64,000 bases of DNA from a virus (IMGVR_UViG_3300035180_001680); one strand, 5' to 3'. Shown: positions 17,161 through 60,401, numbered from the stretch's first letter. Numbers and translations are program-made. The notes: generated by a model not told the origin, from the letters alone.

Positions 17161-17173
17161 TTTTTAAAGAACA
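17161..17173 (-). promoter_or_regulatory. boxA-like element
   Basis: TGTTCTTTAAAAA between terminator and first tRNA; rrn boxA consensus TGCTCTTTAACA. Confidence 0.65.
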
Positions 17174-17174
17174 T

Positions 17175-17207
17175 AAAAAAAGCCTCGGGAGATTTCTCTG
17201 CCGAGGC
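17175..17207 (-). terminator. Intrinsic terminator of attenuator 1
   Basis: GCCTCGGCAGAG-AAAT-CTCCCGAGGC followed by T7. Confidence 0.9.
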
Positions 17208-17227
17208 CTATTAACTTTTGTTTACTT

Positions 17228-17329
17228 TCAGATGATTAGTTTGATTTCAACAGTCAATGCCTCGGCGTGTGAACGTTTATTATTAACGTTTACATTATTG
17301 ATAAAAATTGGTTTAGTTGAATCGAACAT
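17228..17329 (-). CDS. Leader peptide 1 (Asn/Val/Lys): MFDSTKPIFINNVNVNNKRSHAEALTVEIKLII
   Basis: 33 codons; contains antiterminator GCCGAGGC (17259-17266) complementary to the terminator 5' arm. Confidence 0.85.
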   Translation of the reverse strand: MFDSTKPIFINNVNVNNKRSHAEALTVEIKLII

Positions 17330-17365
17330 TTGTAAATTCTTTAAGTTTGTTAAGTTAGTGTTATA

Positions 17366-17394
17366 AGTATATATGACTTATTTATGAAAGTCAA
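17366..17394 (-). promoter_or_regulatory. tRNA-operon promoter 1 (sigma70 plus embedded late ATAAATA)
   Basis: TTGACT-N17-TATACT with ATAAATA in the spacer; same block at 23326, 36623, 60373. Confidence 0.9.
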
Positions 17395-17592
17395 CAAAAG
17401 TTTACAGATAACTGTTGCAACTTCATAATCTTTAGATTTTTTTCAAATCTTCGTCATCTTTTTCATATCCTTTTTTGAAATCCCTCATACCTCTGTCAAA
17501 TTGTTTTTCAAGCGTACGAAGTCGGCGTGGTTCCTATGTTTTTTTGATAGTTCAGTAAATTCGTCTACTAAATCCGCTTGTGTATCTTCCAC

Positions 17593-17868
17593 TCATTCAG
17601 ACATTAAATGGGTTGCATCTTCACGCAACTGTTTTGTCTTACCTTTTGTGATTTCACTTTCATTCAACTTTTCCATACCACTCTTCGTAATCTTTCCAAC
17701 AATCTTTCCATCTTTCTTTACTTCGACAGGGTATCCCGTCTTTTCAGAATGTTTCTTCATTGTCGAAATCACTTCTGGTGTAAGATTAGCAGCACTCGTG
17801 ATAAATCCATTGGACTTTGAACAATAAAACTTATATAATTCAGTTTCAAATAATTGTTTTAATTTCAT
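17593..17868 (-). CDS. Hypothetical late protein, MKLKQLFETE N-terminus
   Basis: ATAAATA upstream; shared N-terminal motif. Confidence 0.55.
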   Translation of the reverse strand: MKLKQLFETELYKFYCSKSNGFITSAANLTPEVISTMKKHSEKTGYPVEVKKDGKIVGKITKSGMEKLNESEITKGKTKQLREDATHLMSE

Positions 17869-18018
17869 TATTTTTCTCGGTTATTCGAGTTATTTATTAT
17901 TAAGCGTGTTGGTTTCCAATAATCATAAAGTGATTGTATAAAACATGATTTTTACCACGTAAAAACCAAATCACGGTTGCCATTGCTCTCAAAGACGTTG
18001 TTTTAATTACCATTTGAC

Positions 18019-18237
18019 TTATCCTTGAAGGCTTTCATGGGCCTTTTCATTTAAAATATACCCATATTTATCGGAAAACTCATTCAATTCATCATCAGAC
18101 ATATTTGACCCATCTTCAAACGTACCTGAACAAAAATAAGCATCACAGAAATCAGGATAATCTAAAGAATCAACTCCATCAACCTCCAACGAATTAACAT
18201 TTACTTCTTTATCATTGATAATAAATTGTTCAGTCAT
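18019..18237 (-). CDS. Hypothetical phage protein
   Basis: VDGVDSLDYPDFCDAYF; operon packing. Confidence 0.6.
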   Translation of the reverse strand: MTEQFIINDKEVNVNSLEVDGVDSLDYPDFCDAYFCSGTFEDGSNMSDDELNEFSDKYGYILNEKAHESLQG

Positions 18238-18521
18238 AGTTTTTCATTCCTTTCCAAGATTGGATTAATAGTTACACCAGAAGGGCAATCGTTATTTTCA
18301 AAAAGTTTAAAATTTGTGTATGGGTTACCACAAACAACACATTTTGTATATGGAGTTATTGAAGATCTTTGTCCATTATATAATGTTTGTTGGTCTTCAA
18401 TTGATAGTGTATCGAAATATTCATTAAAAGTGTTAACAATATTTTGAACATATGCCAATGATACACCAAAATGAACCTGTCCACATTTTTTACACGTCGT
18501 ATATCTGATATCGTTGTTCAT
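18234..18521 (-). CDS. Zn-finger hypothetical protein
   Basis: CKKCG...CVVCG. Confidence 0.6.
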   Translation of the reverse strand: MNNDIRYTTCKKCGQVHFGVSLAYVQNIVNTFNEYFDTLSIEDQQTLYNGQRSSITPYTKCVVCGNPYTNFKLFENNDCPSGVTINPILERNEKL

Positions 18522-18538
18522 TTTTCATCTCCATAAAT

Positions 18539-18614
18539 TGGTCCCGTCGGTCAGATTCGAACTGACAAAATAATAGTTTAGGAAACTATTGCCTTTCCCT
18601 TTGGCTTCGACGAG
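18539..18614 (-). tRNA. tRNA-Arg(CCU)
   Basis: ATAGT-TTCCTAA-ACTAT; CCA. Confidence 0.85.
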
Positions 18615-18622
18615 AAAGAGTC

Positions 18623-18829
18623 TTACTTCTTAACCCTTTTTAAAGCATCTTTGCGCATTAACACTGTTCTATCATTTCCATATTTGTGAACTTGAAGAAA
18701 CTCAACTCCGTCGATTGAACGAATGTCATAGATGTCGTTGCATTCCCACCGCTCCTGATTTATCGGGTTTTCAAAAATCCCTGGAACTGGTACTGGTTTT
18801 ACTGCTTGTTTTACTTTTCGCTTATCCAT
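18623..18829 (-). CDS. Hypothetical phage protein
   Basis: ORF with RBS. Confidence 0.55.
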   Translation of the reverse strand: MDKRKVKQAVKPVPVPGIFENPINQERWECNDIYDIRSIDGVEFLQVHKYGNDRTVLMRKDALKRVKK

Positions 18830-18984
18830 TTTTATTCCTTTTTGGTGTCAACTTCAAATTCTTTTTGAAGTTGTTCTAACAATAAACGCCTAGATTCTTT
18901 ATCTTTTCTAAGTTTTTGTAACTTTCGTTCTTTTGCCTTTTGAGCTCGAAGTTGTGCTTTTTTACCCGTTCTACTTCTGCCTCA

Positions 18985-19272
18985 TCACTCAATCTGAATT
19001 TCTTTGAAAATTTGTAATCGTTGTTTTGTGTCCGTTAACCATTCTTTTGATGTAGTATGAGCACCTTCATCGTAATCTTTATCGCCATTGTAAATGCACA
19101 CAACACAATTAGTTGTGACTAATAAAATTTCCCGATGTTCTTCATCGATCTTAATTTCATCAAACGATTCTCCATCAAAAAACACAAAGCAGTCTTCATT
19201 TTCAGAAATAATAGAAATAACCTTTTCAGTGAATTTGCGTGCATTTAACCAACGTTTATCAAAAATGTTCAT
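18985..19272 (-). CDS. Hypothetical protein
   Basis: ORF in operon. Confidence 0.5.
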   Translation of the reverse strand: MNIFDKRWLNARKFTEKVISIISENEDCFVFFDGESFDEIKIDEEHREILLVTTNCVVCIYNGDKDYDEGAHTTSKEWLTDTKQRLQIFKEIQIE

Positions 19273-19371
19273 TCTGGGTCACCTGTTATAGTTAACATAT
19301 CGGTTGTACTTTTGAGCACCATTTAAATTTTCTTTAAGTGTATATTAATACTCTATACTTTCAAGGCGGTC

Positions 19372-19731
19372 TCAAGATGTAATACCTCGAGGCTTTGAAT
19401 TGATATATACAACTCGTTTGCTGCTATATCGTTTTTCAGCAATATCCTTGTCAGTAACGTATGCATCGTCTTCCCAATCAACATATCTTTTGTAAGAATT
19501 TTTCAGTTCTTTAACCTCTTCAGGTGTAAATTGAAAGTTCATGTTATTTTGGTGTCTACCTTCTTCAGATTGACACTGTTTCATGTAATTTTCGAATGTC
19601 ATTCTAACTAAACTTCCTTCAATGAATTTGGAATCGATGTGCATATAATCGCCGACCATGCTATTCCACAACACGACTTCAGGATTACCTTCAAGTTCTG
19701 TTAACATTTTAATCAAGTCATTCTTTCTCAT
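19372..19731 (-). CDS. Hypothetical protein
   Basis: ORF in operon. Confidence 0.5.
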   Translation of the reverse strand: MRKNDLIKMLTELEGNPEVVLWNSMVGDYMHIDSKFIEGSLVRMTFENYMKQCQSEEGRHQNNMNFQFTPEEVKELKNSYKRYVDWEDDAYVTDKDIAEKRYSSKRVVYINSKPRGITS

Positions 19732-20078
19732 TTGATTTTTCCTGGCGTAATAATTATTGTTGCAATGCAGTGTTGGTTCCTTGGAAGGTCTTTTTCACAC
19801 TGAATCACATTCTTGTGAAGCTGCCGCGCCATGGTGTTCAGTGTTGTATTATACACATATAAGTTATATCCAAGCCATCCCAAAGAAAAACTTATCACAC
19901 CAGTCTAGGTATAAAATTCCATAATTACGTAATGGTCACCGACAGGCATCTTTGTCTTTGTACTAACTCACGTTTTAGTTCCTTAGTTCATGATTTATCC
20001 TAAAATTGCTATATCGACATCATACTTACACTAATGTTAAAAGACAACATAAATATTAAATAACGACTGGGACATGAA

Positions 20079-20510
20079 ATGAGATTGAATGAGATTTTTA
20101 ATTCGAGTGTAGAAATACATGTTGACGTTAAAACATATGAGGAATGTAAAATGTTTTTCGTGGTTGGGGAGATGGAATATGTTTTCCATGCTTATGAGAC
20201 ACAAACGAATGATGACAAAGGAAATCAGGTTTGGAACGTTGCATTCCGTGCTCAAAAAGGAAATCAAACGTCACACGGAATAACAGGTTCCGGAAATGCT
20301 TCTCAAGTTATGGCTGCTGTTATCCAGTGTATTAAAAAATGGATTGAATTATATCCAAAAGTTGTTACGTTCTTCTTTTCTGCAAAATTAGATGAACCAT
20401 CCAGAGTAAAATTATACAACCGAATGGCTCAATCTATTAAAGTTCCAGGGTGGAAAATGTATAAGGAAACGTTCAAAACCAAAGAACTATATTATTTTAC
20501 AAAAGGTTAA
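20079..20510 (+). CDS. Hypothetical late protein, MRLNEIFN N-terminus
   Basis: ATAAATA at about 20049; shared N-terminal motif. Confidence 0.65.
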   Translation: MRLNEIFNSSVEIHVDVKTYEECKMFFVVGEMEYVFHAYETQTNDDKGNQVWNVAFRAQKGNQTSHGITGSGNASQVMAAVIQCIKKWIELYPKVVTFFFSAKLDEPSRVKLYNRMAQSIKVPGWKMYKETFKTKELYYFTKG

Positions 20511-20722
20511 TTGTTAATTTTCCCTTGTTCAATATTATCTAAATGTTTTCTAATGTAACGCATAAACAATATTGCTTTGTCAGAATCGTTGAATACTCCA
20601 TCCCCTGTGTCTGATACTGGAACAGGAAATTCAAATCCATTACTTGTTTTATACCATAATTCATTTTGTCTATAAAACTGAAAATGTACAGTTTGGTCTT
20701 TCACTAACTCTTTAACGTTCAT
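20507..20722 (-). CDS. Hypothetical phage protein
   Basis: FEFPVPVSDTGDGVF...KAILFMRYIRK. Confidence 0.6.
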   Translation of the reverse strand: MNVKELVKDQTVHFQFYRQNELWYKTSNGFEFPVPVSDTGDGVFNDSDKAILFMRYIRKHLDNIEQGKINN

Positions 20723-20855
20723 GATAAAATTCCTTTTTTGAGGTGGGATATAAAAAGTTGTGGACTTTTTTCTTCGTCTGTTGACTCGTGCTTTCACGTT
20801 TACACTAAAATCCCATTGTTGTATTTGTACTACAGAAATACACAGAATTGTGTAT

Positions 20856-20927
20856 TGGTCCCCTTGGCCTGAATCGAACAGGCATAAGGTCGCTTAGAAG
20901 GCGTCCCACCACTCCATTGGCAAGGGG
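20856..20927 (-). tRNA. tRNA-Arg(UCU)
   Basis: GACGC-CTTCTAA-GCGAC; CCA. Confidence 0.75.
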
Positions 20928-21081
20928 GAATAAAAGTGCATTACTTTAAAGTGTTTTAATTAAACGAATATTTATAATTTGGCGGCGCAAAAGTTAATGA
21001 AAACGTGTTACTATATTTATGCACAAATATTTTTCACATCATTTCCAACTAGAGACAACCGGTATATCTATCTTGTGTGCC

Positions 21082-21168
21082 AGGCGGAAGACGGAGGAAT
21101 CGGACCCCACCCCTTGCGGAGCGTTTCGTTTAGCAAACGAACCTGAACACCAGAACAGTTCATCTTCC
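21082..21168 (-). tRNA. tRNA-Ser(GCU)
   Basis: TTCGT-TTGCTAA-ACGAA; long V-arm. Confidence 0.85.
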
Positions 21169-21173
21169 AATAA

Positions 21174-21443
21174 TTATTCTATTTCATCAACCAATTTGTT
21201 TAACTTAATTCTTTGTTTCTTTCGTTCTTTCCACTTCATGTATGCTTCAAAGCGTCTTTTGTTTCCATGCCGAGTCCCTGGTTTATTCAAAAAATCGTAT
21301 AATATGTTTAACAGTTCAGGGTTTTCCAATTCTTCTTTACCTATCCAAAACGGGTGTTCGGTAGAGCAATCTGTATCTTCCCGATATTGACGTATTGCTC
21401 TTTTGGATTTATTCTTCTCTTTGTGTCTTAATGTGTTAGACAT
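21174..21443 (-). CDS. Hypothetical basic protein
   Basis: ORF between tRNAs. Confidence 0.5.
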   Translation of the reverse strand: MSNTLRHKEKNKSKRAIRQYREDTDCSTEHPFWIGKEELENPELLNILYDFLNKPGTRHGNKRRFEAYMKWKERKKQRIKLNKLVDEIE

Positions 21444-21518
21444 AGTTAATAATCTTTAAAAGTTTGTTCTCTCATTGTATTGAATACAAAGACTAATATC
21501 AACATTTGTTTATGATGT

Positions 21519-21590
21519 TGGCCTCCCATGATCGAGTTGAACGATCCAGAATTGATTCGTAGTCAATAAGCTAGTTCCCCTAGATGAGAG
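21519..21590 (-). tRNA. tRNA-Arg(ACG)
   Basis: ATTGA-CTACGAA-TCAAT; CCA. Confidence 0.8.
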
Positions 21591-21598
21591 ATAATTTT

Positions 21599-21678
21599 TG
21601 GCGGGTGTGAAGGGAATTGAACCCTCCTGATTTTCCGAAGTGACAGTCCGGTGACCACGCCATGCAGTCCCCACACCC
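21599..21678 (-). tRNA. tRNA-Asp(GUC)
   Basis: CCGGA-CTGTCAC-TTCGG; CCA. Confidence 0.85.
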
Positions 21679-21773
21679 AAAAGTTAAAACAACACACTAC
21701 TACTGTCAGGTTGTTACACACCCTTTCGTCGTCTTCGGTATAGCAGACCGAATGCTATTTGACGGTGTTGATT

Positions 21774-21858
21774 TGGTACCACCGGTTGGAATCGAACCAA
21801 CTTTGAGGTTTCCCTCCAGGATTATCGGTCCTGTGCCTAACCTATCGGCCACAGTGGT
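21774..21858 (-). tRNA. tRNA-Ile(GAU), long variable arm, C33
   Basis: CAGGA-CCGATAA-TCCTG; V-arm GAGG-GAAA-CCTC. Confidence 0.8.
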
Positions 21859-21864
21859 GTTGTT

Positions 21865-21940
21865 TGGTAGGACCAACCGGGTTCGAACCGATGACAGTCT
21901 GCTTGTAGGGCAGATACTCTACCAACTGAGCTATGGTCCC
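21865..21940 (-). tRNA. tRNA-Val(UAC), C33
   Basis: TCTGC-CCTACAA-GCAGA; CCA. Confidence 0.85.
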
Positions 21941-21964
21941 ATTGAACGATTTCTCGTCCGTTTG

Positions 21965-22342
21965 TTACTTTCTGTGCCTTCGTTTATATAATCGCAATAC
22001 ATCACGCAATTCATTTTTGAAGGAACCATTTTCGCTGTAATATACACAACGACCCAAAGTACCTTTATTCATTCTATATTCCAACGCTTCTACTGACGTT
22101 TCTTCTGGTTGGAACTGTTCCTCCAAACCATAACACGAACAGTGTGATCCATTAACCTCATACAGTATACCGTTTTTCTCATACAACACAAACGCGGATC
22201 CACTATAATCTTCGTACGAATACCAAGCTAATAAGATCTTTTCACCATCATTCAGTTCTATCTGAAATTTGTGTTCAACGTCTTCTACATCACCAAAATT
22301 TCCTAAAAAGTATTGTTTCATCATCATCTCCTTTGTGGTCAA
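21965..22342 (-). CDS. Hypothetical phage protein
   Basis: YEDYSGSAFVL...GSHCSCYGLE. Confidence 0.65.
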   Translation of the reverse strand: MTTKEMMMKQYFLGNFGDVEDVEHKFQIELNDGEKILLAWYSYEDYSGSAFVLYEKNGILYEVNGSHCSCYGLEEQFQPEETSVEALEYRMNKGTLGRCVYYSENGSFKNELRDVLRLYKRRHRK

Positions 22343-22383
22343 AAAATCGTTTAACTCATATTAGAGTTCTGTTATTACAATAC

Positions 22384-22460
22384 TGGTACCCTTGGAGAGA
22401 TTCGAACTCCCGACCTTCTCGTTCGAAGCGAGACAATCTAGTCCACTGATATACAAGGGC
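22384..22460 (-). tRNA. tRNA-Arg(UCG)
   Basis: TCTCG-CTTCGAA-CGAGA; CCA. Confidence 0.88.
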
Positions 22461-22651
22461 ATATCAAATCATTATATCCTCAATTTCTTTCTTAAATCTT
22501 GAATCCTTCTATTATACTCAGAAACGTTAATTTCAGCAACGTTGGAAGACTTTTTTATTAGGGCCATTTTTAATTCTGTTTCTAATCTATTCAACTGCCC
22601 ACGCATTTTTGCTACTTTTTATCTTCTTTGCTCATTTTACTTCGTCCTTTT

Positions 22652-22728
22652 TGGCAACCCCGTCGAGAATCGGACTCGAAAAATCAACAAGGGTCAAAAC
22701 CTTGCGTCATCACTAGATGAACGGGGCA
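22652..22728 (-). tRNA. tRNA-Gln(UUG)
   Basis: CAAGG-TTTTGAC-CCTTG; CCA. Confidence 0.75.
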
Positions 22729-22735
22729 TCTGTTT

Positions 22736-22810
22736 TGGCACCGCCGATGGGACTCGAACCCACCTGAATCTCATAGACAGTGAGATGCTCTCCCCGAGAG
22801 CTACGACGGT
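22736..22810 (-). tRNA. tRNA-Asp(GUC)
   Basis: TCTCA-CTGTCTA-TGAGA; CCA. Confidence 0.85.
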
Positions 22811-22823
22811 ATTATACTTCAAA

Positions 22824-22897
22824 TGGCAAGCCCACCAAGAGTTGAACTTGGACTAGAAGATTCAAAATCTTCTGTGCTACCGCTACACCACGGGCCA
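22824..22897 (-). tRNA. tRNA-Gln(UUG)
   Basis: GAAGA-TTTTGAA-TCTTC; CCA. Confidence 0.88.
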
Positions 22898-22903
22898 ATT
22901 AAA

Positions 22904-22978
22904 GGCTAGGAAGTAGAGAATCGAACTCTATACGAATGCGCTCAGAACGCACCACCTCGACCAATCGGCTTCTTCCCA
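22904..22978 (-). tRNA. tRNA-Gln(CUG)
   Basis: GTGCG-TTCTGAG-CGCAT. Confidence 0.8.
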
Positions 22979-22991
22979 ATATATTTTCAAA

Positions 22992-23004
22992 TTTTTAATG
23001 AACA
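22992..23004 (-). promoter_or_regulatory. boxA-like element
   Basis: TGTTCATTAAAAA after terminator 2. Confidence 0.6.
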
Positions 23005-23015
23005 GTTGTAAAACG

Positions 23016-23048
23016 AAAAACCCAGTCTCTTTTGGAAACTGGGTTTTT
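23016..23048 (-). terminator. Intrinsic terminator of attenuator 2
   Basis: AACCCAGTTTC-CAAAA-GAGACTGGGTT followed by a T-run. Confidence 0.9.
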
Positions 23049-23071
23049 CTTTTTAAGAATTTAGCTTTATG

Positions 23072-23167
23072 CTATACCCAGCCTCCAGACATAATAATAT
23101 CACTGTCGCGACGTACTTGGCGTCGGCGAATGATACTAATACTCTGTTGTTGTCTGGTTACGAACAT
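23072..23167 (-). CDS. Leader peptide 2 (Arg/Gln/Ile/Ser/Asp/Val): MFVTRQQQSISIIRRRQVRRDSDIIMSGGWV
   Basis: 31 codons, RBS AAGGAG; CTGGGT (23076-23081) can pair with terminator 5' arm ACCCAG. Confidence 0.9.
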   Translation of the reverse strand: MFVTRQQQSISIIRRRQVRRDSDIIMSGGWV

Positions 23168-23325
23168 TTGTAAAGCTCCTTAAATTAAATGGTGTTTACT
23201 ACTTTATCGTCTGCTTAATATACGCTTCTACGCACCCACATATTTCTATGTTTTGTTAGTACCGGGACGTCCTAGCTTTCAACACCTAACTATTTAGTTA
23301 AGCACTTTGCTCAACTGTTGATACA

Positions 23326-23354
23326 AGTATATATGACTTATTTATAAAAGTCAA
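23326..23354 (-). promoter_or_regulatory. tRNA-operon promoter 2
   Basis: TTGACT-TTTATAAATAAGTCATA-TATACT. Confidence 0.9.
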
Positions 23355-44779: not shown

Positions 44780-44806
44780 CAAAAAAGGCGCCAAAGCGCC
44801 TTTTTT
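44780..44806. terminator. Bidirectional intrinsic terminator
   Basis: AAAAAAGGCG-CCAAAG-CGCCTTTTTT. Confidence 0.75.
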
Positions 44807-49449: not shown

Positions 49450-50370
49450 TTTACTTTGTATAAGGTTGAGATTAAACCTATACTATTGATACCTTCGAGA
49501 CATTATCTCATCACCTGCTACAGCTAGAGTTCTTCTCTTATCCACATAATCAGCTTTCGCACAACTATGTCTATCAACATGACTGCATTTTTTAAGTGGT
49601 TGCTTTTCCACCAACATGTAAAGCTACTCGATTATCTGTCTACCGCCAACCTTGCGAGCTGTACAAGAGCGCTAACTCTCTGCGTGCGACTTTCTTTCAA
49701 CATCCTCGACCTTGCGAGTTTTGGACGCCTTCATTACCTTGCGGCTGAAGGATTAAGCCATTTTCACTTTACACTGGAAACGTCTTTGCGTTTTATGTAA
49801 TATAATCCAAATTTATATGGGCTGTTAACCCTAACATTGTTAAACCTACCAAGAAGTGCGTTTCCAGTGGATTTCATACCTTTTGAGTATAAAAATACCA
49901 CACTCCTCATGTTTTTCATCTGCCGACTACTCAACCAGTTTTCAGGAATCGTGACACCCTATTACAGGTACCAAAACCCCCTCAACTTGCACAACAGCCC
50001 TTACTTGCGGGTTCGGACCACTGTACTACCCTTTACCTTTTGAGATGGCTAGTTTGTGTAGGCGTGAGGTCGGCACAACCCGTTACTCTCCAAATGCCCA
50101 AGTTCCCTGCAGAGCAGGCTTGTAAACATTCGTTCTTTCCACACCCCTAACTTCCCTCATATGACTACCGTTGGCGATAATCAGCTCCTTTCGGAGTAGG
50201 TCAGGCTTGCTTGTTTGTACCCCTTACAGGGCGCGGTAGTTGTAGGACCTACCGCTTTCACAACATCGCTGTTGGTTACTTTGCACAAGCGCGTAATTCT
50301 TTATCTTTTAAATTGTTTCTGATGAAACGTTCTGAATTCACAGAACTAATTAAAAGAGTGACTTTCTTAA
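49450..50370 (-). ncRNA. Giant structured ncRNA, GOLLD/ROOL-like
   Basis: About 900 nt without a credible ORF; many GCAA/GAAA-capped hairpins on the minus strand; downstream of a tRNA; TTGACT promoter near 50410. Confidence 0.6.
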
Positions 50371-50906: not shown

Positions 50907-50981
50907 CGGTGCCCAATGTCGGAATCGAACCGACGGTCAAGTGTTTTAGAAGCACCTGCTTTACCATTAAGCCAATTGAGC
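50907..50981 (-). tRNA. Amber suppressor candidate tRNA(CUA)
   Basis: GGTGC-TTCTAAA-ACACT in canonical register. Confidence 0.65.
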
Positions 50982-52453: not shown

Positions 52454-52530
52454 TGGAGCGGGAAAAGAGACTTGAACTCTCGACCTCAACTTTGGCAAAG
52501 TTGCGCTCTAACCAACTGAGCTACTCCCGC
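52454..52530 (-). tRNA. tRNA-Gly(GCC)
   Basis: CAACT-TTGCCAA-AGTTG; CCA; TATAAATA just upstream. Confidence 0.92.
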
Positions 52531-52696: not shown

Positions 52697-54033
52697 CAAT
52701 CTCTCAACTAAGAAAACCCCAGATGCTTCAACATCGGGGATGAATTAGTTGATCTCTCTTCTAACTTCCCCCATAAATACTCTTATACAAAGGGAGAACA
52801 CCACTTGCATAAAGCATACACGTTCCGATTAAATCCGACAACAGATCAGGAAACCGCGCTGAAACAGACAGGTGGATCAGTTCGTTGGTTGTGGAACCAA
52901 ATGTTAAAAGCAAATATTGACAAATATGCTGCTGAGGGGAAGTTTAATTTTCAGTTCGATATGAACCGGATGACAACGAAGTTGAGGGCCGAGATTCCGT
53001 GGCTTGAAGAGGTGAATAGCCAGGTTTTGCAGCAGAAAAACAGGGATTTAGATAAATCAATCAAAGCAAAAATCGCAAGGAAAACCAAACAGACTGGATT
53101 TCCTAAATTTAAGAAAAAGACAGAAAACAATGATTCATTTCGAGTTCCTGGTGGTTTTAAGTTATCGAATAAAGGCGTAAAATTGCCTAAAATCGGATGG
53201 ATTTCGTGGAAAATCAATAGAAAACTTCAGGGGAAAGCGAAAAATATTACATTTAAACAAGTAGGTGATAAGTGGAACGCAGTTGTTTTGTGCGAGATTG
53301 CTGATGTAGAACCAAGAACATTGTTTTCTGATGCCGAAGTTATCGGAATTGATGTTGGAATTAAAGATTTTGCTGTGTTGAGCAATGGAAAGAAGATTGC
53401 TAATCCCAAGGACCTTGAGAAGAGTTCTCGGTTGTTAAAGAGAAAACAACAATCACTCTCTAAGAAGGTTAAAGGATCTTCCAATCGAATCAAAGCAAGA
53501 AAATCTGTTGCTAAGTTGCACAGATCTGTAGCAAATAAAAGAAAAGACTTCCAGTGGAAACTAGTTGATTTGATAACCAAAAATCACTCAGTTGTTTGCA
53601 TGGAAGACCTGAATATTAGCGGAATGGTCAAGAACAGAAAGTTGGCTAAATCAATCGAATCTGCTGGATGGAGAATGTTTAAAGAAAAACTTAAACATAA
53701 ACTAGCAGAGACAGGTGGTTTGGTTGTCAATATCCCTAGATTTGCTCCATCTTCTAAAATGTGCTCATCGTGTGGAGCATTAAATCATTCTCTGACTCTA
53801 AAAGATAGAGAGTGGAAATGTGATTGCAATGCTGAACACGATAGAGACATTAACGCTGCGATTAATATTCGGAATATTGGTTTAAATACGCTGGGAACTA
53901 GCGGAATTTACGCCTGTGGAGTTGCCTCTGATGGGGATATAGCATATGATATATCTAGTTATGCAATGATGAAGCAGGAAAATCTGGGCGTTGGCCTGGA
54001 AGCCCCAAATGCTTTAGCATTGGGGTAGTTCAC
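52697..54033 (+). mobile_element. IS200/IS605-family (IS1341-type, tnpB-only) element
   Basis: TAM TTTAT, left-end hairpin CCCCAGATGCT..CATCGGGG, right-end hairpin ending TTCAC; excision restores the host reading frame. Confidence 0.92.
52805..54028 (+). CDS. tnpB: TnpB RNA-guided endonuclease
   Basis: HTH N-terminus; RuvC GIDVG, MEDL, DRDINAA; CSSCG/CDC zinc finger. Confidence 0.95.
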   Translation: MHKAYTFRLNPTTDQETALKQTGGSVRWLWNQMLKANIDKYAAEGKFNFQFDMNRMTTKLRAEIPWLEEVNSQVLQQKNRDLDKSIKAKIARKTKQTGFPKFKKKTENNDSFRVPGGFKLSNKGVKLPKIGWISWKINRKLQGKAKNITFKQVGDKWNAVVLCEIADVEPRTLFSDAEVIGIDVGIKDFAVLSNGKKIANPKDLEKSSRLLKRKQQSLSKKVKGSSNRIKARKSVAKLHRSVANKRKDFQWKLVDLITKNHSVVCMEDLNISGMVKNRKLAKSIESAGWRMFKEKLKHKLAETGGLVVNIPRFAPSSKMCSSCGALNHSLTLKDREWKCDCNAEHDRDINAAINIRNIGLNTLGTSGIYACGVASDGDIAYDISSYAMMKQENLGVGLEAPNALALG

Positions 54034-54798: not shown

Positions 54799-54804
54799 CA
54801 GAAT

Positions 54805-56624: not shown

Positions 56625-56649
56625 ACAATAACTCCAAAAAGGGTATTTA

Positions 56650-56982: not shown

Positions 56983-56984
56983 TA

Positions 56985-57236: not shown

Positions 57237-57240
57237 AATA

Positions 57241-57516
57241 TTATCCTTTAATTGTTGTAGTATTTATCCAAAGACTGTACGGATGTTCATATTTACAACT
57301 AAACATTACAGAATTAAAGGATTTTCCGGGGAACTCTTCAAGAAAGATATTTGTATGATAATCACTTATAATCATATATGATAGTGTATACTCTCCACCT
57401 TCAACCAATCCAAGTTTTCTAGCTTGAATGCGATTATAATCAAGACCGTGTTCATCAAGAAACCTTACTTTCGTTCCTGGTGGAGCATATAATAAATCAG
57501 TATGAGTCATATTCAA
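57241..57516 (-). CDS. Hypothetical protein
   Basis: ORF with RBS. Confidence 0.5.
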   Translation of the reverse strand: MNMTHTDLLYAPPGTKVRFLDEHGLDYNRIQARKLGLVEGGEYTLSYMIISDYHTNIFLEEFPGKSFNSVMFSCKYEHPYSLWINTTTIKG

Positions 57517-57730
57517 TCCTGTTTTTAATTTAAGTCCAAAAGAACGGGGTTTCCCCCTGTCCTATTACTTATAGCTGCAAGTTCTGCGCAACACTGTATT
57601 AGGTTGTAATCAACAAACTGGTTTGCGATTTTTCGAAGTTCTTTATAATCACGTTCCGACACAGTTCACCTTATCAACAAACATTTAAAGTAAAGATACT
57701 TTACACTAATGGAGAGTAAAAGTCAACAAT

Positions 57731-57853
57731 TGGTTGTTGTGGTAGGACTCGAACCTACACAAGCTGCTGGAAGGGTTACTATTTTAGTCTGTCTTCACAG
57801 AGCTCCCCACTATGATTCCACCGCCGGGGTATACCAATCCCCCTCACACAACA
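57731..57853 (-). ncRNA. tRNA-scaffold RNA with a branched insertion replacing the anticodon loop
   Basis: Intact acceptor, D and T arms and CCA; about 50 extra nt. Confidence 0.6.
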
Positions 57854-57856
57854 ATT

Positions 57857-57949
57857 TGGTAGTCCTGGTGGGTAACGCTCCCACTACTTGCCCTCATCTA
57901 GGACCTTGGATGTTTATAAATCATCTTGTTTTCTTTAAACTACAGGACC
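57857..57949 (-). tRNA. tRNA-Ile(UAU), long variable arm, atypical T-loop
   Basis: GATGA-TTTATAA-ACATC; CCA. Confidence 0.7.
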
Positions 57950-57957
57950 AATTTGTT

Positions 57958-58042
57958 TGGTGTCTCGAGGGAGACTCGAACTCCCACCTTTCGGTCAATT
58001 GTTTTTGAAACAATTCAGTCTACCAATTCCCTGCACCGAGAC
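57958..58042 (-). tRNA. tRNA-Leu(CAA)
   Basis: ATTGT-TTCAAAA-ACAAT; CCA. Confidence 0.88.
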
Positions 58043-58061
58043 AAATTTAAAACTTTAAAAC

Positions 58062-58152
58062 TGGCGGAAGGTACAGGAATCGAACCAGCGGCTCTACTTA
58101 GATGCCGGCGACTGCTTTCAAAACAGTTTGTCTGCCATAGACACTACCTTCC
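58062..58152 (-). tRNA. tRNA-Ser(UGA)
   Basis: ACTGT-TTTGAAA-GCAGT; CCA. Confidence 0.85.
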
Positions 58153-58157
58153 ATATA

Positions 58158-58661
58158 TCACTTTCTGTGTTTAATACACCGAGTTGAAATCCAACCCCGG
58201 CCACCCACAGTTCCTCGTGCACCACACACTTCACAAATCATTTTACTTTGATATTCAGCAAACTGAATTGCTGAATATTGTTCTTCGGTTGCGTTAGAAA
58301 CATAAAACCGAAGAGTTCCAAATTTTTCTTTCACTTGCCGAGCAACAGGAATCGAAAGTTCTGCATCATCCATCCTTACTTTGGTTGCGGCAATCAACTC
58401 AGTTGTGATAATAGGGTTAAAATCACTTTCAGGACTACCTGGATACAAAAGTTGACCAAGGTTAGGCACCATACGATCGTATGTGTATTTCTCATAGATC
58501 CAATCGCTGCACAAAAATTCAGACAATTGATTAATAAGATTAAACCAACCATCTCCACAAGTAACCCCCCAACACATACAAGTTTCACTCATCGGAAGAG
58601 TGTGTTCTTTATATAGAGCAGGATACTTCTTAAAAAGATAATTTTGATAATGTCTGTTCAT
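58158..58661 (-). CDS. Hypothetical phage protein
   Basis: CGDGWF...QVKEKFGTLRFY...CEVCG...WISTRC. Confidence 0.65.
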   Translation of the reverse strand: MNRHYQNYLFKKYPALYKEHTLPMSETCMCWGVTCGDGWFNLINQLSEFLCSDWIYEKYTYDRMVPNLGQLLYPGSPESDFNPIITTELIAATKVRMDDAELSIPVARQVKEKFGTLRFYVSNATEEQYSAIQFAEYQSKMICEVCGARGTVGGRGWISTRCIKHRK

Positions 58662-58717
58662 TTTTAGTCTCTCATCATATATTAAATGATATTTTAAAAT
58701 GACGAAAATGTCAACAC

Positions 58718-58805
58718 AGGTCCGAGTGACCGGATTCGAACCGGTACGACCTTTCGGCCGGCAGGGTTTAAGCCTGCTGCATCTACCTAATTACACCACA
58801 CTCGT
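58718..58805 (-). tRNA. tRNA-Leu(UAA)
   Basis: GCAGG-CTTAAAC-CCTGC. Confidence 0.85.
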
Positions 58806-58810
58806 AATTT

Positions 58811-58894
58811 TGGTGCCCCAGACGGGAGTCAAACCCGTAAAAACCTGCGTTCTTAGCGCAGTATCTGTACCAATTTGCATTTGTCACCGGGGGC
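58811..58894 (-). tRNA. tRNA-Leu(AAG), near-duplicate of 59545
   Basis: CTGCG-CTAAGAA-CGCAG; short V-loop. Confidence 0.75.
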
Positions 58895-58906
58895 AATTTA
58901 ACTGTC

Positions 58907-58990
58907 TGGTCCGCAGGGAGGGATTCGAACCCACAAAAGCACTACCGTTTGAAGATAGGGGCTGTACCAATTTACCTAAGCCACCTGCGG
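58907..58990 (-). tRNA. tRNA-Leu(CAA)
   Basis: CTATC-TTCAAAC-GGTAG; CCA. Confidence 0.78.
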
Positions 58991-58995
58991 AAATA

Positions 58996-59086
58996 TGGCG
59001 GAGAGTACAGGAATCGAACCAGCGGCTCTACTTAGATGCCGGCGACTGCTTTCTAGGCAGTTTGTCCACCATGGACGCTACTCTCC
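58996..59086 (-). tRNA. tRNA-Ser(AGA)
   Basis: ACTGC-CTAGAAA-GCAGT; body nearly identical to Ser(UGA) at 58062. Confidence 0.82.
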
Positions 59087-59092
59087 AATATT

Positions 59093-59179
59093 TGGTCGGC
59101 AAGGGGGGATTCGAACCCAACCAAGAGCACTGGAACTTAAATCCAGGGGCTGTACCAATTTACCTAAGCCACTTGCCGA
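59093..59179 (-). tRNA. tRNA-Leu(UAA)
   Basis: CTGGA-TTTAAGT-TCCAG; CCA. Confidence 0.75.
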
Positions 59180-59246
59180 ATAGTACCTAATGAGGGATTC
59201 AAACCCTCGCTCACCTTGTCATATAGATTAATGAGACAAACGTGGT

Positions 59247-59348
59247 TGGTGGCCACAGGATGGGAATTTAACCCACTTATCCAGAGGAATGGGAGCTACG
59301 CCTCGAGGAATCTCCCACAGTGCTGTTTCAACTACACCTATCTGCGCC
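59247..59348 (-). ncRNA. tRNA-like RNA with a 16-nt anticodon loop
   Basis: TGGGAG-ATTCCTCGAGGCGTAG-CTCCCA; T-arm; CCA. Confidence 0.5.
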
Positions 59349-59357
59349 ATAATATTT

Positions 59358-59430
59358 TGGAGCGGGCTATGAGATTCGAACTCACCTCTTTCGGCTTGGA
59401 AGGCCAAACGTACACCACTTGACAACCCGC
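59358..59430 (-). tRNA. tRNA-Gly(UCC)
   Basis: TTGGC-CTTCCAA-GCCGA; CCA. Confidence 0.88.
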
Positions 59431-59439
59431 ATTAAATTT

Positions 59440-59536
59440 TGGAACCGTATTGCAGTCACGCTCTGCCTGTGTTGCACCTGGACTCCAAGTACAACTCTTA
59501 TTGATTCTTACCAGCACCTACTGGAATGATACGGTA
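59440..59536 (-). ncRNA. tRNA-like RNA with non-canonical arms
   Basis: ACCGTAT/ATACGGT stem plus CCA; GCAG-AGCGTGA-CTGC in the T-arm position. Confidence 0.4.
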
Positions 59537-59544
59537 ATATTTTT

Positions 59545-59627
59545 TGGTGCCCCAGACGGGAGTCGAACCCGTAAAAACCTGCGTTCTTAGCGCAGTAGCT
59601 GTACCAATTTGCATTTGTCACCAGGGC
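59545..59627 (-). tRNA. tRNA-Leu(AAG)
   Basis: CTGCG-CTAAGAA-CGCAG; CCA. Confidence 0.8.
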
Positions 59628-59760
59628 AATATATCATGTTTTAATCTTTATAAATGTTCACGTTCTAACTGTTTTCTTGTGTATCGAATTGTGGTTCGTT
59701 TAAATAACCAGATACCACCAACAAAGCGATTGTTCCAAATAACACACAACAGGACAAACT

Positions 59761-59837
59761 TGGTACCCAACCTCAGATTCGAACTGAGAACCACAACGTT
59801 CTAAGCGTTGCCGCGTTACCAATTAGCGTAGAAGGGT
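59761..59837 (-). tRNA. tRNA-Leu(UAG), short variable loop
   Basis: CAACG-CTTAGAA-CGTTG; CCA. Confidence 0.85.
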
Positions 59838-59846
59838 ATTAAATTT

Positions 59847-59936
59847 TGGTGGGGAGAGGACAGAATCGAACTTCTTGCCACGAGGGACAGGGGCTACAAC
59901 CCTGCGCCAGGACCACCTAGCCTTATTTCACTCCCC
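59847..59936 (-). tRNA. tRNA-Tyr(GUA), divergent
   Basis: CAGGG-TTGTAGC-CCCTG; weak T-stem. Confidence 0.65.
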
Positions 59937-59943
59937 TTTATTT

Positions 59944-60029
59944 TGGAACGCTAGGTAGGATTTGCACCCACGTGGGCTTTCACCATCTGCTTTGCAGGCA
60001 GTTCCGTTCGTCTACTCCGGCACTAGCGC
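59944..60029 (-). tRNA. tRNA-Cys(GCA), long variable arm
   Basis: CTGC-CTGCAAA-GCAG; U73; CCA. Confidence 0.85.
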
Positions 60030-60035
60030 ATAAAT

Positions 60036-60154
60036 TGGTGGGCATGGTAGGAATCGAACCTACTCACCACGAGGGAACGGATTTAGTCGAGAACACTGGA
60101 AAACCAATGCTCTCTAGTCAGTCCGCCGCGACTCTCCAACTTCGCCGCATGCCC
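60036..60154 (-). tRNA. tRNA-Tyr with a 33-nt hairpin insertion in the anticodon
   Basis: GCGGA-CTG[33 nt]TAAA-TCCGT; Tyr-type body; CCA. Confidence 0.75.
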
Positions 60155-60169
60155 CAAAATATTTCAAAT

Positions 60170-60181
60170 TTTTAAATAACA
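60170..60181 (-). promoter_or_regulatory. boxA-like element
   Basis: TGTTATTTAAAA after terminator 4. Confidence 0.5.
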
Positions 60182-60190
60182 GTTTACAAC

Positions 60191-60222
60191 AAAAAAGCCT
60201 GGGTCTTTCGAGCCAGGCTTTC
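60191..60222 (-). terminator. Intrinsic terminator of attenuator 4
   Basis: AGCCTGGCTC-GAAA-GACCCAGGCT followed by a T-run. Confidence 0.9.
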
Positions 60223-60240
60223 TTTTGGGATTTTTTCTCT

Positions 60241-60336
60241 TTACATCTTGGTAATTCCCCAAACGGCGACCTGGCTCTTATCCAATATGGATAAAGACCC
60301 GAGTGATAGACAATAACCTAATCCGTTTGTGTTCAT
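60241..60336 (-). CDS. Leader peptide 4 (Leu/Ser/Gly/Tyr/Cys/Ile-AUA): MNTNGLGYCLSLGSLSILDKSQVAVWGITKM
   Basis: 31 codons, RBS AAGGA; GAGCCAGG (60270-60277) is an exact complement of terminator 5' arm CCTGGCTC. Confidence 0.9.
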   Translation of the reverse strand: MNTNGLGYCLSLGSLSILDKSQVAVWGITKM

Positions 60337-60372
60337 TTTGTAAATCCTTTAAGTAATTAATTCAGTGTTATA

Positions 60373-60401
60373 AGTATATATGACTTATTTATAAAAGTCA
60401 A
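60373..60401 (-). promoter_or_regulatory. tRNA-operon promoter 4
   Basis: TTGACT-TTTATAAATAAGTCATA-TATACT. Confidence 0.9.

Follow-up and report, generated by a model that had tools for sequence, protein, structure and literature searches.

Four tRNA arrays of an uncultured giant phage lie behind putative leader-peptide attenuators matched to their own codons

Each of four tRNA arrays of the uncultured giant phage IMGVR_UViG_3300035180_001680 is preceded by a cassette which, judging from its sequence, is most likely a ribosome-mediated attenuator of the trp/his/ilv type that would sense decoding speed and feed back on tRNA supply; each tRNA set would probably be made only when its codons are read slowly. 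The direct basis for this reading is the anatomy of the cassettes, the match between leader codons and array anticodons, the alternative RNA pairings, and conservation and covariation across phages. The window, i.e., the whole stretch of DNA analysed, spans 64,000 nt (17161-60401 shown) of a 178.8-kb contig.

Cassette anatomy and tRNA arrays

The four minus-strand cassettes follow a common plan: promoter block, SD site and ATG, ORF, terminator, boxA-like site, tRNAs (Table 1). All elements claimed in the initial annotation were found on this strand and at the positions given there. The 30-nt promoter block, said to be the same ahead of every array, indeed occurs in exactly four copies in the window (expected number in shuffles, 0), with no further copy across the 178.8-kb contig, and was recognized by a promoter scan as TTGACT-17-TATACT with 10 of 12 matches. 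The leader ORF begins 30-152 nt farther on, and the TTTACAA(A)ATG starts and 31-33-codon ORFs are likewise seen in all four cassettes (33, 31, 32, and 31 codons). A GGAG/AGGA-like site lies 8-9 nt 5' of each ATG, although it is weak in cassette 1; thus, as in leader-peptide attenuators, the 5' leader carries a short ORF with a predicted ribosome-binding site and start codon. Cassette 2 has a 154-nt 5' UTR after the promoter block, whereas relatives are without such a UTR.

Between each leader ORF and the downstream genes lies the expected intrinsic terminator, strong in all four cases by folding energy against shuffles (-17.8 to -22.2 kcal/mol, z -4.6 to -6.5) and provided with a U-run. The minus strand of the 64 kb holds six strong terminators, four of which are those of the cassettes, placed at array starts rather than at array ends. 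One copy per cassette of TGTTCWTTAAMAATTT, which is close to the E. coli boxA consensus, is located 3-12 nt 5' of the first tRNA, in agreement with the boxA-like site noticed initially. The cassette-2 copy in the relative G001 reads GCTCTTTAAAAA, and the motif is absent from the cassettes of G003, G006, and G007. As with boxA/Nus antitermination in rrn operons, the motif belongs to a long stable-RNA operon that is for the most part not translated, and lies 3' of its promoter; unlike in rrn operons, it also stands 3' of the attenuator, so that only polymerases beyond this checkpoint would take up any complex. By analogy, a Nus-type complex probably loads at this site, with NusB/NusE as the presumed binding partners.

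The partition of the tRNA set by amino acid is nearly clean, but not complete as had been proposed: Val, Ser, and possibly Lys are divided by isoacceptor. ORFs are interspersed among the tRNAs of array 3. Downstream of array 4 there is no strong terminator before 44785-44802, and hence a Gly(GCC) tRNA at 52454-52530 probably belongs to the same unit.

Table 1 Coordinates of the cassette elements and tRNA arrays in the window
Cassette	Feature	Coordinates	Strand	Details
1	Promoter block	17365..17394	-	TTGACT-17-TATACT; motif count and promoter scan
1	Leader ORF	17228..17329	-	33 codons + stop; control run codons 11-18, NNVNVNNK, 17276-17299
1	Candidate antiterminator	17259..17266	-	GCCGAGGC, codons 22-24; pairs with 5' arm GCCUCGGC; 0/1000 shuffles
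1	Predicted terminator (hairpin + U-run)	17174..17209	-	-18.5 kcal/mol, z -4.8
1	boxA-like site	17158..17173	-	
1	tRNA array	16721..17154	-	Val(GAC), Asn(GTT), Lys(TTT), Lys(CTT), Lys(TTT)
2	Promoter block	23325..23354	-	Motif count and promoter scan
2	Leader ORF	23072..23167	-	31 codons + TAG; control run codons 5-25, RQQQSISIIRRRQVRRDSDII, 23093-23155
2	Candidate antiterminator	23076..23086	-	GGAGGCUGGGU, codons 28-31, adjoining stop; pairs with ACCCAGUUUCC; 0/1000 shuffles
2	Predicted terminator	23010..23049	-	-22.2 kcal/mol, z -6.5
2	boxA-like site	22989..23004	-	
2	tRNA array, first part	18539..22978	-	Gln(CTG), Gln(TTG), Asp, Gln(TTG, relaxed call), Arg(TCG), Val(TAC)
2	tRNA array, rest	18539..22978	-	Ile(GAT), Asp, Arg(ACG), Ser(GCT), Arg(TCT), Arg(CCT)
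2	Ser(GCT) of array	21083-21168	-	Relaxed call
3	Promoter block	36622..36651	-	Motif count and promoter scan
3	Leader ORF	36470..36568	-	32 codons + stop; control run codons 3-22, FTTFFTAFTTPEAWHAPEMA, 36503-36562
3	Candidate antiterminator	36491..36498	-	GCGCUCUU, codons 24-26; pairs with AAGGGCGC
3	Predicted terminator	36415..36451	-	-17.8 kcal/mol, z -4.6
3	boxA-like site	36370..36385	-	
3	tRNA array, first part	31177..36357	-	Pro(TGG), Pro(CGG), Ala(TGC), Glu(TTC), Phe(GAA), Thr(TGT)
3	tRNA array, rest	31177..36357	-	His(GTG), Thr(CGT), Trp, Met, Thr(GGT), Ala(TGC)
4	Promoter block	60372..60401	-	Motif count and promoter scan
4	Leader ORF	60241..60336	-	31 codons + stop; control run codons 5-18, GLGYCLSLGSLSIL, 60283-60324
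4	Candidate antiterminator	60269..60277	-	GAGCCAGGU, codons 20-23; pairs with GCCUGGCUC; 6/1000 shuffles
4	Predicted terminator	60188..60224	-	-19.4 kcal/mol, z -5.5
4	boxA-like site	60166..60181	-	1 mismatch to motif
4	tRNA array, first part	57857..60154	-	Tyr(GTA, 33-nt insert), Cys, Leu(TAG), Gly(TCC), Ser(AGA)
4	tRNA array, rest	57857..60154	-	tRNA of uncertain anticodon (Lys CTT by ARAGORN), Leu(TAA), Ser(TGA), Leu(CAA), type-II tRNA with anticodon TAT

Leaders contain runs of codons read mostly by their own arrays

The initial annotation held that each leader is built largely from the codons that its own array reads, and the counts bear this out. The control runs comprise 8, 21, 20, and 14 codons in leaders 1-4, respectively, and 58 of these 63 codons are read by the leader's own array under strict wobble rules (62 of 63 when U34 is allowed to read entire four-codon boxes). 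Array 2 reads all 21 run codons of leader 2; the match of leader 1 is limited to 8 codons, one of which (GTA) is read by the Val tRNA of array 2. The leaders sample 33 of the 36 anticodon species of their own arrays. At the amino-acid level, the diagonal of the match matrix (0.34, 0.67, 0.77, and 0.57) compares with off-diagonal values of 0.06-0.31, and the local log-odds of each leader are highest for its own array in all four cases (16.4, 22.3, 25.5, and 15.2); none of 4,272 control windows drawn from the phage's own proteins scores as high (maximum, 12.4-14.8). The codon match includes three tRNAs from relaxed-threshold calls. Each cassette thus contains a run of regulatory codons tied to the genes that it would regulate.

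The leaders could also act as general translation-capacity sensors or infection timers opening all arrays, with no array-specific sensing. Consistent with such a role, a single leader samples up to 8-9 amino acids, with many synonymous codons, and the four cassettes share one promoter and hence would be co-transcribed in time. A general sensor, however, needs no array-specific composition, yet the own-array match is the best one, the other arrays read only 0-2 of the run codons, and the leaders vary with array content across phages. We therefore regard general sensing as unlikely and favor array-specific attenuation.

Alternative pairings and the proposed attenuation model

A segment complementary to the 5' arm of the terminator (region 2, the candidate antiterminator) is present in the 3' portion of all four leader ORFs, as claimed; the pairings of 8, 11, 8, and 9 bp somewhat exceed the 6-8 nt originally reported. 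The duplexes between ORF and terminator arm (-13.5 to -19.1 kcal/mol) stand above shuffles in cassettes 1, 2, and 4. The cassette 3 antiterminator taken alone is not significant (180/1000 and 28/500 shuffles); the equivalent pairing is significant in both G001 and G002, and across phages such pairing is significant in 12 of 15 leaders. G001 and G002 have kept the cassettes, with compensatory changes in the antiterminator, the 5' arm, and the 3' arm. Compared with G001, the antiterminator of cassette 2 displays three-way covariation and that of cassette 4 a compensatory change from G-C to A-U, and a strain variant at 17264 retains the antiterminator pair of cassette 1 as G.U.

Ribosome-mask folds were computed on transcripts cut before the 3' arm, with the ribosome footprint masked. 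The 5' arm is predicted to pair with region 2 when the control codons are masked, and no such pairing is predicted when region 2 is masked; the modeled antiterminator is thus mutually exclusive with the terminator and hidden or exposed by ribosome position, with masking from the stop codon in cassette 2 only. In that cassette, region 2 adjoins the stop codon, but it precedes the stop by 6-10 codons in cassettes 1, 3, and 4, where a ribosome at the stop codon would leave it uncovered. The OFF state of these three cassettes would accordingly rest on ribosome/polymerase timing or on a 1:2 helix, in which the control-codon region pairs with the antiterminator segment, a structure clearly predicted only in the free RNA of cassette 3. 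In these models, the OFF-state geometry is textbook in cassette 2 only.

The trp/his/thr-type attenuation initially suggested fits the own-array match and the terminator/antiterminator alternatives in all four cassettes, as well as the covariation in relatives. Under this model, the host sigma-70-type RNA polymerase would initiate at the conserved promoter. The leader ORF, once loaded with a ribosome, would call with its run of 8-21 control codons for the amino acids, mostly through the exact codons, of the downstream tRNAs. When cognate charged tRNA is scarce, slow decoding would cause the ribosome to lag on the control run, leaving region 2 (8-11 nt) free to pair with the 5' arm; the hairpin would not form and the polymerase would continue, probably gaining a Nus-type antitermination complex at the boxA-like site, as in rRNA operons, before transcribing the array. 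When decoding is fast, the ribosome would cover region 2 or the adjoining stop codon during synthesis of the terminator, which would then form, and no array transcript would be produced. Because its products are the very tRNAs tested, each array would represent an amino-acid-specific negative-feedback supply circuit. Translation of the leaders and the direction of the switch are what we infer from these features, and the trigger could be a host tRNA pool that matches poorly, decay of host tRNAs, or defences that cleave tRNA. A search for RNA runs containing this DNA gave none. Such a leader would sense charged tRNA, to which tRNA loss and amino-acid starvation would look alike; extra tRNA would give no help under starvation.

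The logic might be different or reversed, with leader translation needed for readthrough and good decoding switching the arrays ON in a positive feedback. Indeed, the untranslated truncated RNA of cassettes 1, 2, and 4 is predicted to fold into the antiterminator already, so that thermodynamics alone would set neither the default state nor the role of the ribosome. However, the stop codons are located 19-26 nt before the hairpins, so that a ribosome terminating there would be too distant to melt them, and in the model the antiterminator is lost only with the ribosome past the control run, which points to an OFF state under fast decoding. Reversed logic is thus quite improbable relative to attenuation as outlined above.

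Occurrence in other phages

The same design, with other tRNA groupings and matching leaders, was found in five other uncultured giant-phage contigs and in the cultured phages CcrColossus and Atu_ph07, with partial cases in XacN1; in KVP40 and T5, nothing rises above background, and hence the design is not universal. Leaders homologous to leader 3 are present in G001 and G002, and in G003, G006, and G007, the tRNAs are grouped otherwise and the leader content differs accordingly. Covariation of leader content with array anticodons in homologues had been set beforehand as a test of the model; it is observed, including in unrelated phages with other groupings. In a permutation test on structure-defined units, the true leader-array pairing beat 200,000 of 200,000 permutations, and for the six units outside the source phage's family, it was the best of 720. 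The GenBank record of CcrColossus independently annotates the terminator, and that of Atu_ph07 the leader ORF.

In Atu_ph07, the leader carries a hypothetical-protein annotation, and every unit is equipped with a promoter, ribosome-binding site, ORF, and terminator of its own, as would be the case for stand-alone micro-protein or small RNA genes; transcription of the tRNAs would then start elsewhere, and their agreement with the leader composition would be incidental. This is very unlikely, given that the match is reached by neither the control windows nor the permutations, and that no other promoter block or strong terminator lies between the units and the arrays. Moreover, the peptide tails are not conserved: those of cassette 4 are entirely different in the window and G001, whereas both the control runs and the RNA pairings have persisted. 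Strain variants are similarly confined to synonymous sites (both of the two in leader 1) or to the peptide tail (all three in leader 4, nonsynonymous, in codons 24, 27, and 31).

Relation to known systems

Enterobacterial attenuators include the multivalent leaders of ilvGMEDA (Ile/Leu/Val) and thr (Thr/Ile), as well as trpL, hisL, leuL, and pheL. The phage cassettes share with them the promoter, the short ORF with regulatory codons for several amino acids, the intrinsic terminator, and the upstream segment competing for the terminator 5' arm, with ribosome position as the presumed arbiter. They differ in being phage-borne and in number, with the code divided among four parallel copies; a single leader also covers as many as 8-9 amino acids, with many synonymous codons, and region 2 is farther from the stop codon in three of the four cassettes. 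Most importantly, the downstream genes encode tRNAs rather than biosynthetic enzymes or aminoacyl-tRNA synthetases, so that the product would be the sensed molecule, and it is in this respect that the element is new. The initial annotation considered such attenuators undescribed for phage tRNA operons, and our literature searches concur, having found no published description of such control for tRNA genes. Rfam matches to His_leader (17173-17304; 29.8 bits, below the threshold of 49) and Thr_leader (23012-23106; 27.1 bits, below the threshold of 55, E about 0.2) reflect a likeness of shape only, with no sequence or family relationship.

T-box riboswitches bind tRNA directly via one specifier codon, without translation. 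A T-box-like leader RNA, although it would likewise respond to tRNA status by a choice of terminator or antiterminator ahead of translation-related genes, is extremely unlikely here, considering that the leaders are in-frame multi-codon runs behind a ribosome-binding site and ATG and match no riboswitch family, the T-box covariance model giving no hit at the gathering threshold in the window and none at E <= 0.5 in 16500-37000.

Phage tRNAs are reported to serve as a counter-defence or replacement for degraded host tRNAs that sustains translation upon host tRNA loss (e.g., PMC11555353); that work reportedly deals with which tRNAs phages carry and is not known to describe demand-sensing control of their transcription. 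For the attenuators proposed here, counter-defence against tRNA nucleases, as opposed to plain supply-and-demand homeostasis, is plausible.

Attenuation of a translation-apparatus gene by a leader peptide is known from pheST of E. coli, where the pheM leader controls phenylalanyl-tRNA synthetase in response to charged tRNA-Phe. Unlike the phage cassettes, pheST is host-borne and has a protein target, the synthetase, and a single amino acid.

Architecture of the tRNA cassettes

The initial annotation had described four parallel cassettes, each leading into a tRNA array on the minus strand, and this layout is confirmed: the promoter block is present in four copies, together with the short ORFs, the terminators and the boxA-like sites. 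A scanning tool interprets the 30-nt promoter block as TTGACT-17-TATACT, and the contig contains exactly four copies of the block, all of them in the window. Each copy is followed by a GGAG/AGGA-like site and TTTACAA(A)ATG, a leader ORF of 33, 31, 32 or 31 codons (cassettes 1 to 4, respectively), a hairpin with a U-run, a boxA-like site and the first tRNA gene. The hairpins are located 19-26 nt past the leader ORFs (-17.8 to -22.2 kcal/mol, z -4.6 to -6.5), with a U-run after each, and the boxA-like motif TGTTCWTTAAMAATTT is found in every cassette, with the first tRNA 3-12 nt downstream. A simple terminator scan recovered only the cassette 3 hairpin, the other stems being bulged, and RNAfold-based detection was used instead; it yielded six strong terminators on the minus strand in 64 kb, four of which are those of the cassettes. 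Because these terminators stand at the entrances of the arrays and not at their ends, they bear the signature of regulatory terminators.

Cassette 2 has 154 nt between the promoter and the ribosome-binding site. This stretch is absent in G001, an IMG/VR contig related to the window phage, and in minor contigs of two metagenomes, where 31 nt similar to the short 5′ UTRs of cassettes 1, 3 and 4 take its place.

Leaders are built from the codons of their own arrays

When leader residues are scored by whether an array carries a tRNA for their amino acid, the own array serves a fraction of 0.34, 0.67, 0.77 and 0.57 for cassettes 1 to 4, compared with 0.06-0.31 for the other arrays, yielding a diagonal matrix. 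For each of the four leaders, the own array is also the best-scoring one by local log-odds (16.4, 22.3, 25.5 and 15.2, respectively), with maximum control values of 12.4-14.8 in 4,272 windows of 32 residues taken from the long ORFs of the phage. The matching residues are contiguous and form control runs, namely NNVNVNNK, RQQQSISIIRRRQVRRDSDII, FTTFFTAFTTPEAWHAPEMA and GLGYCLSLGSLSIL in leaders 1 to 4. Under strict wobble rules, 58 of the 63 control-run codons are decoded by the own array (62 if U34 decodes whole four-codon boxes), and 0-2 by the other arrays. The earlier claim that each leader consists largely of codons read by its own array is thus borne out.

The correspondence extends to the choice among synonymous codons. 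All three Ser codons of run 2 are AGT, decoded by the Ser(GCT) gene of array 2, and the Val codon is GTA in leader 2, where the array carries Val-TAC, and mostly GTT in leader 1, where it carries Val-GAC. Synonymous codons are used widely in the leaders, with the result that, of the 36 anticodon species in the four arrays, 33 are represented in the leader of the same array (P ~0.008, 0.002 and 0.0008 for cassettes 2, 3 and 4).

Alternative pairing between the leader ORF and the terminator

In each of the four cassettes, an ORF segment located 3′ of the control run is complementary to the 5′ arm of the terminator (Table). Duplexes as strong as those observed were obtained in 0, 0, 180 and 6 per 1,000 dinucleotide shuffles of the ORF for cassettes 1 to 4, respectively. 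When the transcript ending just before the 3′ arm was folded with a ribosome masking the control codons, the 5′ arm paired with the ORF segment; when the ribosome masked codons ~18-27 of the same transcript, this pairing was gone. In the free RNA of cassette 3, the control-codon region folds onto the ORF segment, as in the classic 1:2 helix. The antiterminator segment abuts the stop codon in cassette 2 only; in cassettes 1, 3 and 4, it would be left exposed by a ribosome waiting at the stop, so that the OFF state in these three must rest on ribosome-polymerase lag or on extra helices.

Table. Antiterminator pairings and locations of features in the window and in other phages
Feature	Sequence	Coordinates	Strand	ORF segment	Terminator 5′ arm
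Cassette 1 antiterminator pairing	window			GCCGAGGC	GCCUCGGC
Cassette 2 antiterminator pairing	window			GGAGGCUGGGU	ACCCAGUUUCC
Cassette 3 antiterminator pairing	window			GCGCUCUU	AAGGGCGC
Cassette 4 antiterminator pairing	window			GAGCCAGGU	GCCUGGCUC
His_leader match	window	17173-17304	-		
Thr_leader match	window	23012-23106	-		
Leader 2 stop codon	window	23072-23074	-		
154-nt stretch of cassette 2	window	23171-23324	-		
Structured stretch upstream of cassette 3	window	36652-36880	-		
TROVE/Ro-like protein	window	46996-48498			
GOLLD RNA	window	49463-49908	-		
tRNA(CTA)	window	50908-50981	-		
TnpB/IS605 OrfB-like gene	window	52805-54028	+		
Two odd tRNAs of array 4	window	57857-57949 and 58907-58990	-		
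tRNA-Tyr(GTA)	window	60036-60154	-		
Protein-coding region in Thr/Ser tRNA block	G007 segment	19330-19830			
CcrColossus leader	JX100810	68148-68243			
CcrColossus terminator	JX100810	68276-68301			
CcrColossus tRNA-like sequence	JX100810	~68360-68450			
Atu_ph07 leader	MF403008	339118-339246			

Conservation in close relatives

Two related contigs are informative: G001 contains three cassettes with the same promoter block, and G002, whose PRPP synthetase (Prs) is 78% identical, contains a homologue of cassette 3. In these relatives, the control runs are either conserved or substituted within the amino-acid set of the array, whereas the peptide tails diverge. Pairing covaries in relatives: in cassette 2, CUGGG is changed to CCGGG in the antiterminator and the 3′ arm together with CCCAG to CCCGG in the 5′ arm, and in cassette 4 a G-C pair is replaced by A-U. 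Near-identical strains from other metagenomes show two changes in cassette 1, both synonymous, one of which retains an antiterminator pair as G.U, and three changes in leader 4, each of which is nonsynonymous and falls within the tail, with the run, the switch and the terminator unchanged. The leaders might be read as stand-alone micro-proteins, a reading that we considered and rejected; conserved runs and pairing against divergent tails are consistent with selection for codon content and RNA pairing, not for the function of the peptide.

Beyond these relatives, direct homology searches reached little. The exact promoter block was found in one related contig only in IMG/VR and in none of the metagenome contigs, and a profile of the leader 3 peptide retrieved only the two known relatives. 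DNA searches of GenBank phages with two of the cassettes revealed no homologous cassette (one gave a match to tRNA-Tyr only, the other none), and tblastn with a 1,050-aa ORF gave short domain matches only. The best Prs match among sequences labelled as phages, Acinetobacter phage MD-2021a, was dropped, the sequence being that of a bacterial chromosome. A search for RNA-seq runs containing the window DNA listed none.

Leaders track array content in distant and cultured phages

More distant giant phages, in which the tRNAs are grouped differently from the window, were found through Prs (39-57% identical). In contig G003, Lys, Ala, Ile, Thr, Asn and Val tRNAs follow a leader with the run VTIKTNTIKTNAVAINAN; in G006, three Gln tRNAs come after QQQQSQSSQSSSS, and two Ser tRNAs lie ~2.8 kb beyond. 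A G007 leader rich in Thr, Ser, Gly and Met lies upstream of Gly, Thr, Met, Gln and Ser tRNAs, and a second one, with the run IIVHVGIVI, lies upstream of Val, His, Ile, Val and Met tRNAs. In an unbiased scan of all 598 ATG-initiated ORFs of 10-65 codons located up to 1.2 kb upstream of a tRNA on the same strand, the four leaders of the window ranked 3rd, 4th, 8th and 10th. For units chosen by structure alone (terminator, short ORF and downstream tRNA), the true leader-array pairing surpassed all 200,000 permutations, whether the close relative was included or left out, and for the six units outside the family of the window phage it was the single best of 720. Leader content hence covaries with array anticodons across homologues, where the initial annotation had named a lack of such covariation as grounds for refuting its reading, and a chance match of leaders to arrays is rejected by these permutations and by the 4,272 control windows.

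Another leader, rich in His, Gln, Pro and Phe, in segment A of G003 has an 11-bp antiterminator and a weak composition score (6.7, rank 4 of 13), and its status as a cassette is doubtful. A high-scoring ORF at segment position 19396 of G007 was rejected as an out-of-frame artefact within a longer protein-coding region. The latter, which by eye is seryl-tRNA synthetase-like, is located within the Thr/Ser tRNA block of this ~500-kb phage.

The short-ORF/tRNA scan was repeated on five isolates: CcrColossus, Atu_ph07, XacN1, KVP40 and T5. Caulobacter phage CcrColossus has a clear cassette, in which the run RNNVRQIRVRQ-N, with a textbook 1:2/2:3/3:4 pairing set after it, lies ahead of tRNAs for Val, Ile, Gln, Asn and Arg; its terminator is already annotated in GenBank. 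Agrobacterium phage Atu_ph07 also carries a clear cassette; its leader ORF, annotated as a hypothetical protein, is rich in Glu, Ile, Ala, Arg, Val, Phe, Met, Trp, Tyr and Pro, with matching tRNAs downstream, and its ribosome-binding region resembles that of the window. Xanthomonas phage XacN1 encodes two strongly matched ORFs with no U-tract terminators and is a partial carrier of the design. In KVP40 and T5, the same scan revealed nothing above background. CcrColossus also has an unannotated tRNA-like sequence, with the Tyr-like anticodon arm CTGTAAA, after the attenuator terminator and ahead of the first annotated tRNA; the leader has one Tyr codon.

Probable ribosome-mediated attenuation of tRNA arrays

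Ribosome-mediated attenuation is the best-supported reading of the cassettes, and the attenuator interpretation of the initial annotation is upheld as far as sequence reaches, the leaders matching their own arrays and the pairings covarying in relatives. Slow decoding of the control run would leave the antiterminator free, allowing the polymerase to enter the array, and fast decoding would permit terminator formation. As the tRNAs under test are the products of the arrays themselves, each array would constitute an amino-acid-specific negative-feedback supply loop. Past this checkpoint, the boxA-like site, judging by its motif, might provide rrn-style protection of the long untranslated transcript. 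Direct tRNA sensing of the T-box kind was rejected, none of the cassettes being a T-box by Rfam search.

On this reading, the cassettes would work in the manner of the pheST attenuator and of the multivalent leaders of ilv and thr; they differ from known leader-peptide attenuators in the class of genes controlled. None belongs to an Rfam leader family; cassettes 1 and 2 give sub-threshold matches in the correct orientation (His_leader, 29.8 bits; Thr_leader, 27.1 bits; E ~0.2), which are a likeness of shape, not membership. Leader-peptide attenuation has been a textbook case for decades, confined, to our knowledge, to amino-acid and synthetase genes, and full-text searches of PubMed Central and bioRxiv returned no account of tRNA genes, whether of phages or not, under the control of a leader peptide.

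Genes for tRNAs are the commonest translation genes in phages, and proposals in the debate on their carriage and control include a match to codon usage, substitution for host tRNAs that have been degraded, and evasion of defences that cleave tRNAs. Candidate natural triggers of the cassettes are a host tRNA pool poorly matched to phage codons, decay of host tRNAs during infection and tRNA-cleaving defence systems, which the sequence does not separate; a sensor of charged tRNA would respond to amino-acid starvation as well. Tentatively, and as a possibility rather than a probability, the tRNA genes of giant phages may be self-regulating supply circuits, in which a translated 'codon test strip' samples nearly every isoacceptor and opens only the tRNA set that is running short, thereby detecting and repairing, set by set, host tRNA depletion or cleavage by anticodon nucleases or host shut-off, with the design widespread and including the cultured CcrColossus and Atu_ph07. 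If such demand sensing is real, phages gauge decoding speed for each codon set and make tRNAs to order, the question of phage tRNA control becomes a testable circuit, and leader-peptide attenuation extends to stable-RNA genes and to viruses. The leaders would be natural, highly multiplexed codon sensors (8-9 amino acids), usable as ready-made reporters of tRNA availability, and the rule that leader composition equals array content could delimit tRNA operons in uncultured phage genomes. The two cultured carriers make the mechanism accessible to direct experiments.

Genome setting and tRNA inventory

The window (G+C ~36%) corresponds to positions 33549-97548, on the reverse strand, of a viral contig of 178.8 kb in IMG/VR, whose completeness is estimated at about one half. 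It encodes phage-family proteins, including a PHROG RNA-binding (TROVE-like) protein, a QueE-like protein, a head-decoration domain and PRPP synthetase. Default ARAGORN identified 38 tRNA genes, all on the minus strand; intron mode added tRNA-Tyr(GTA), and relaxed thresholds with Rfam added Ser(GCT), a third Gln(TTG) and a type-II tRNA with anticodon TAT. No Leu(AAG) gene was recovered by these means. The tRNA-Tyr(GTA) gene, missed by default, heads array 4 and has a 33-nt insert that adjoins the anticodon, is much below the length of a group I intron and is kept in a near-identical strain; its 3′ half resembles tRNA-Tyr of Alishewanella phages (87%). Two further tRNAs of array 4 are odd: one, of 93 nt with a long variable arm, has the anticodon TAT, matching an ATA codon in leader 4, and the other is Lys(CTT) according to ARAGORN, with a better-paired anticodon stem giving CAA (Leu).

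Immediately upstream of the cassette 3 promoter lies an apparently structured, G+C-richer stretch of ~230 nt with no ORF and no Rfam match, for which relaxed ARAGORN gave a doubtful call of tRNA-Phe with intron. A full-length GOLLD RNA (RF02032, 198.8 bits), in an apparent transcription unit shared with array 4, is located between an amber-suppressor-like tRNA(CTA) and a TROVE/Ro-like RNA-binding protein (PF11443, PF25043, phrog_850). The tRNA(CTA) would decode TAG, which is the stop codon of leader 2; if it suppresses, ribosomes on this leader would continue through the cassette 2 terminator. Finally, a TnpB/IS605 OrfB-like gene with OrfB_IS605, Cas12f1-like TNB and HTH domains, on the strand opposite to the tRNAs and cassettes, adjoins tRNA-Gly(GCC).
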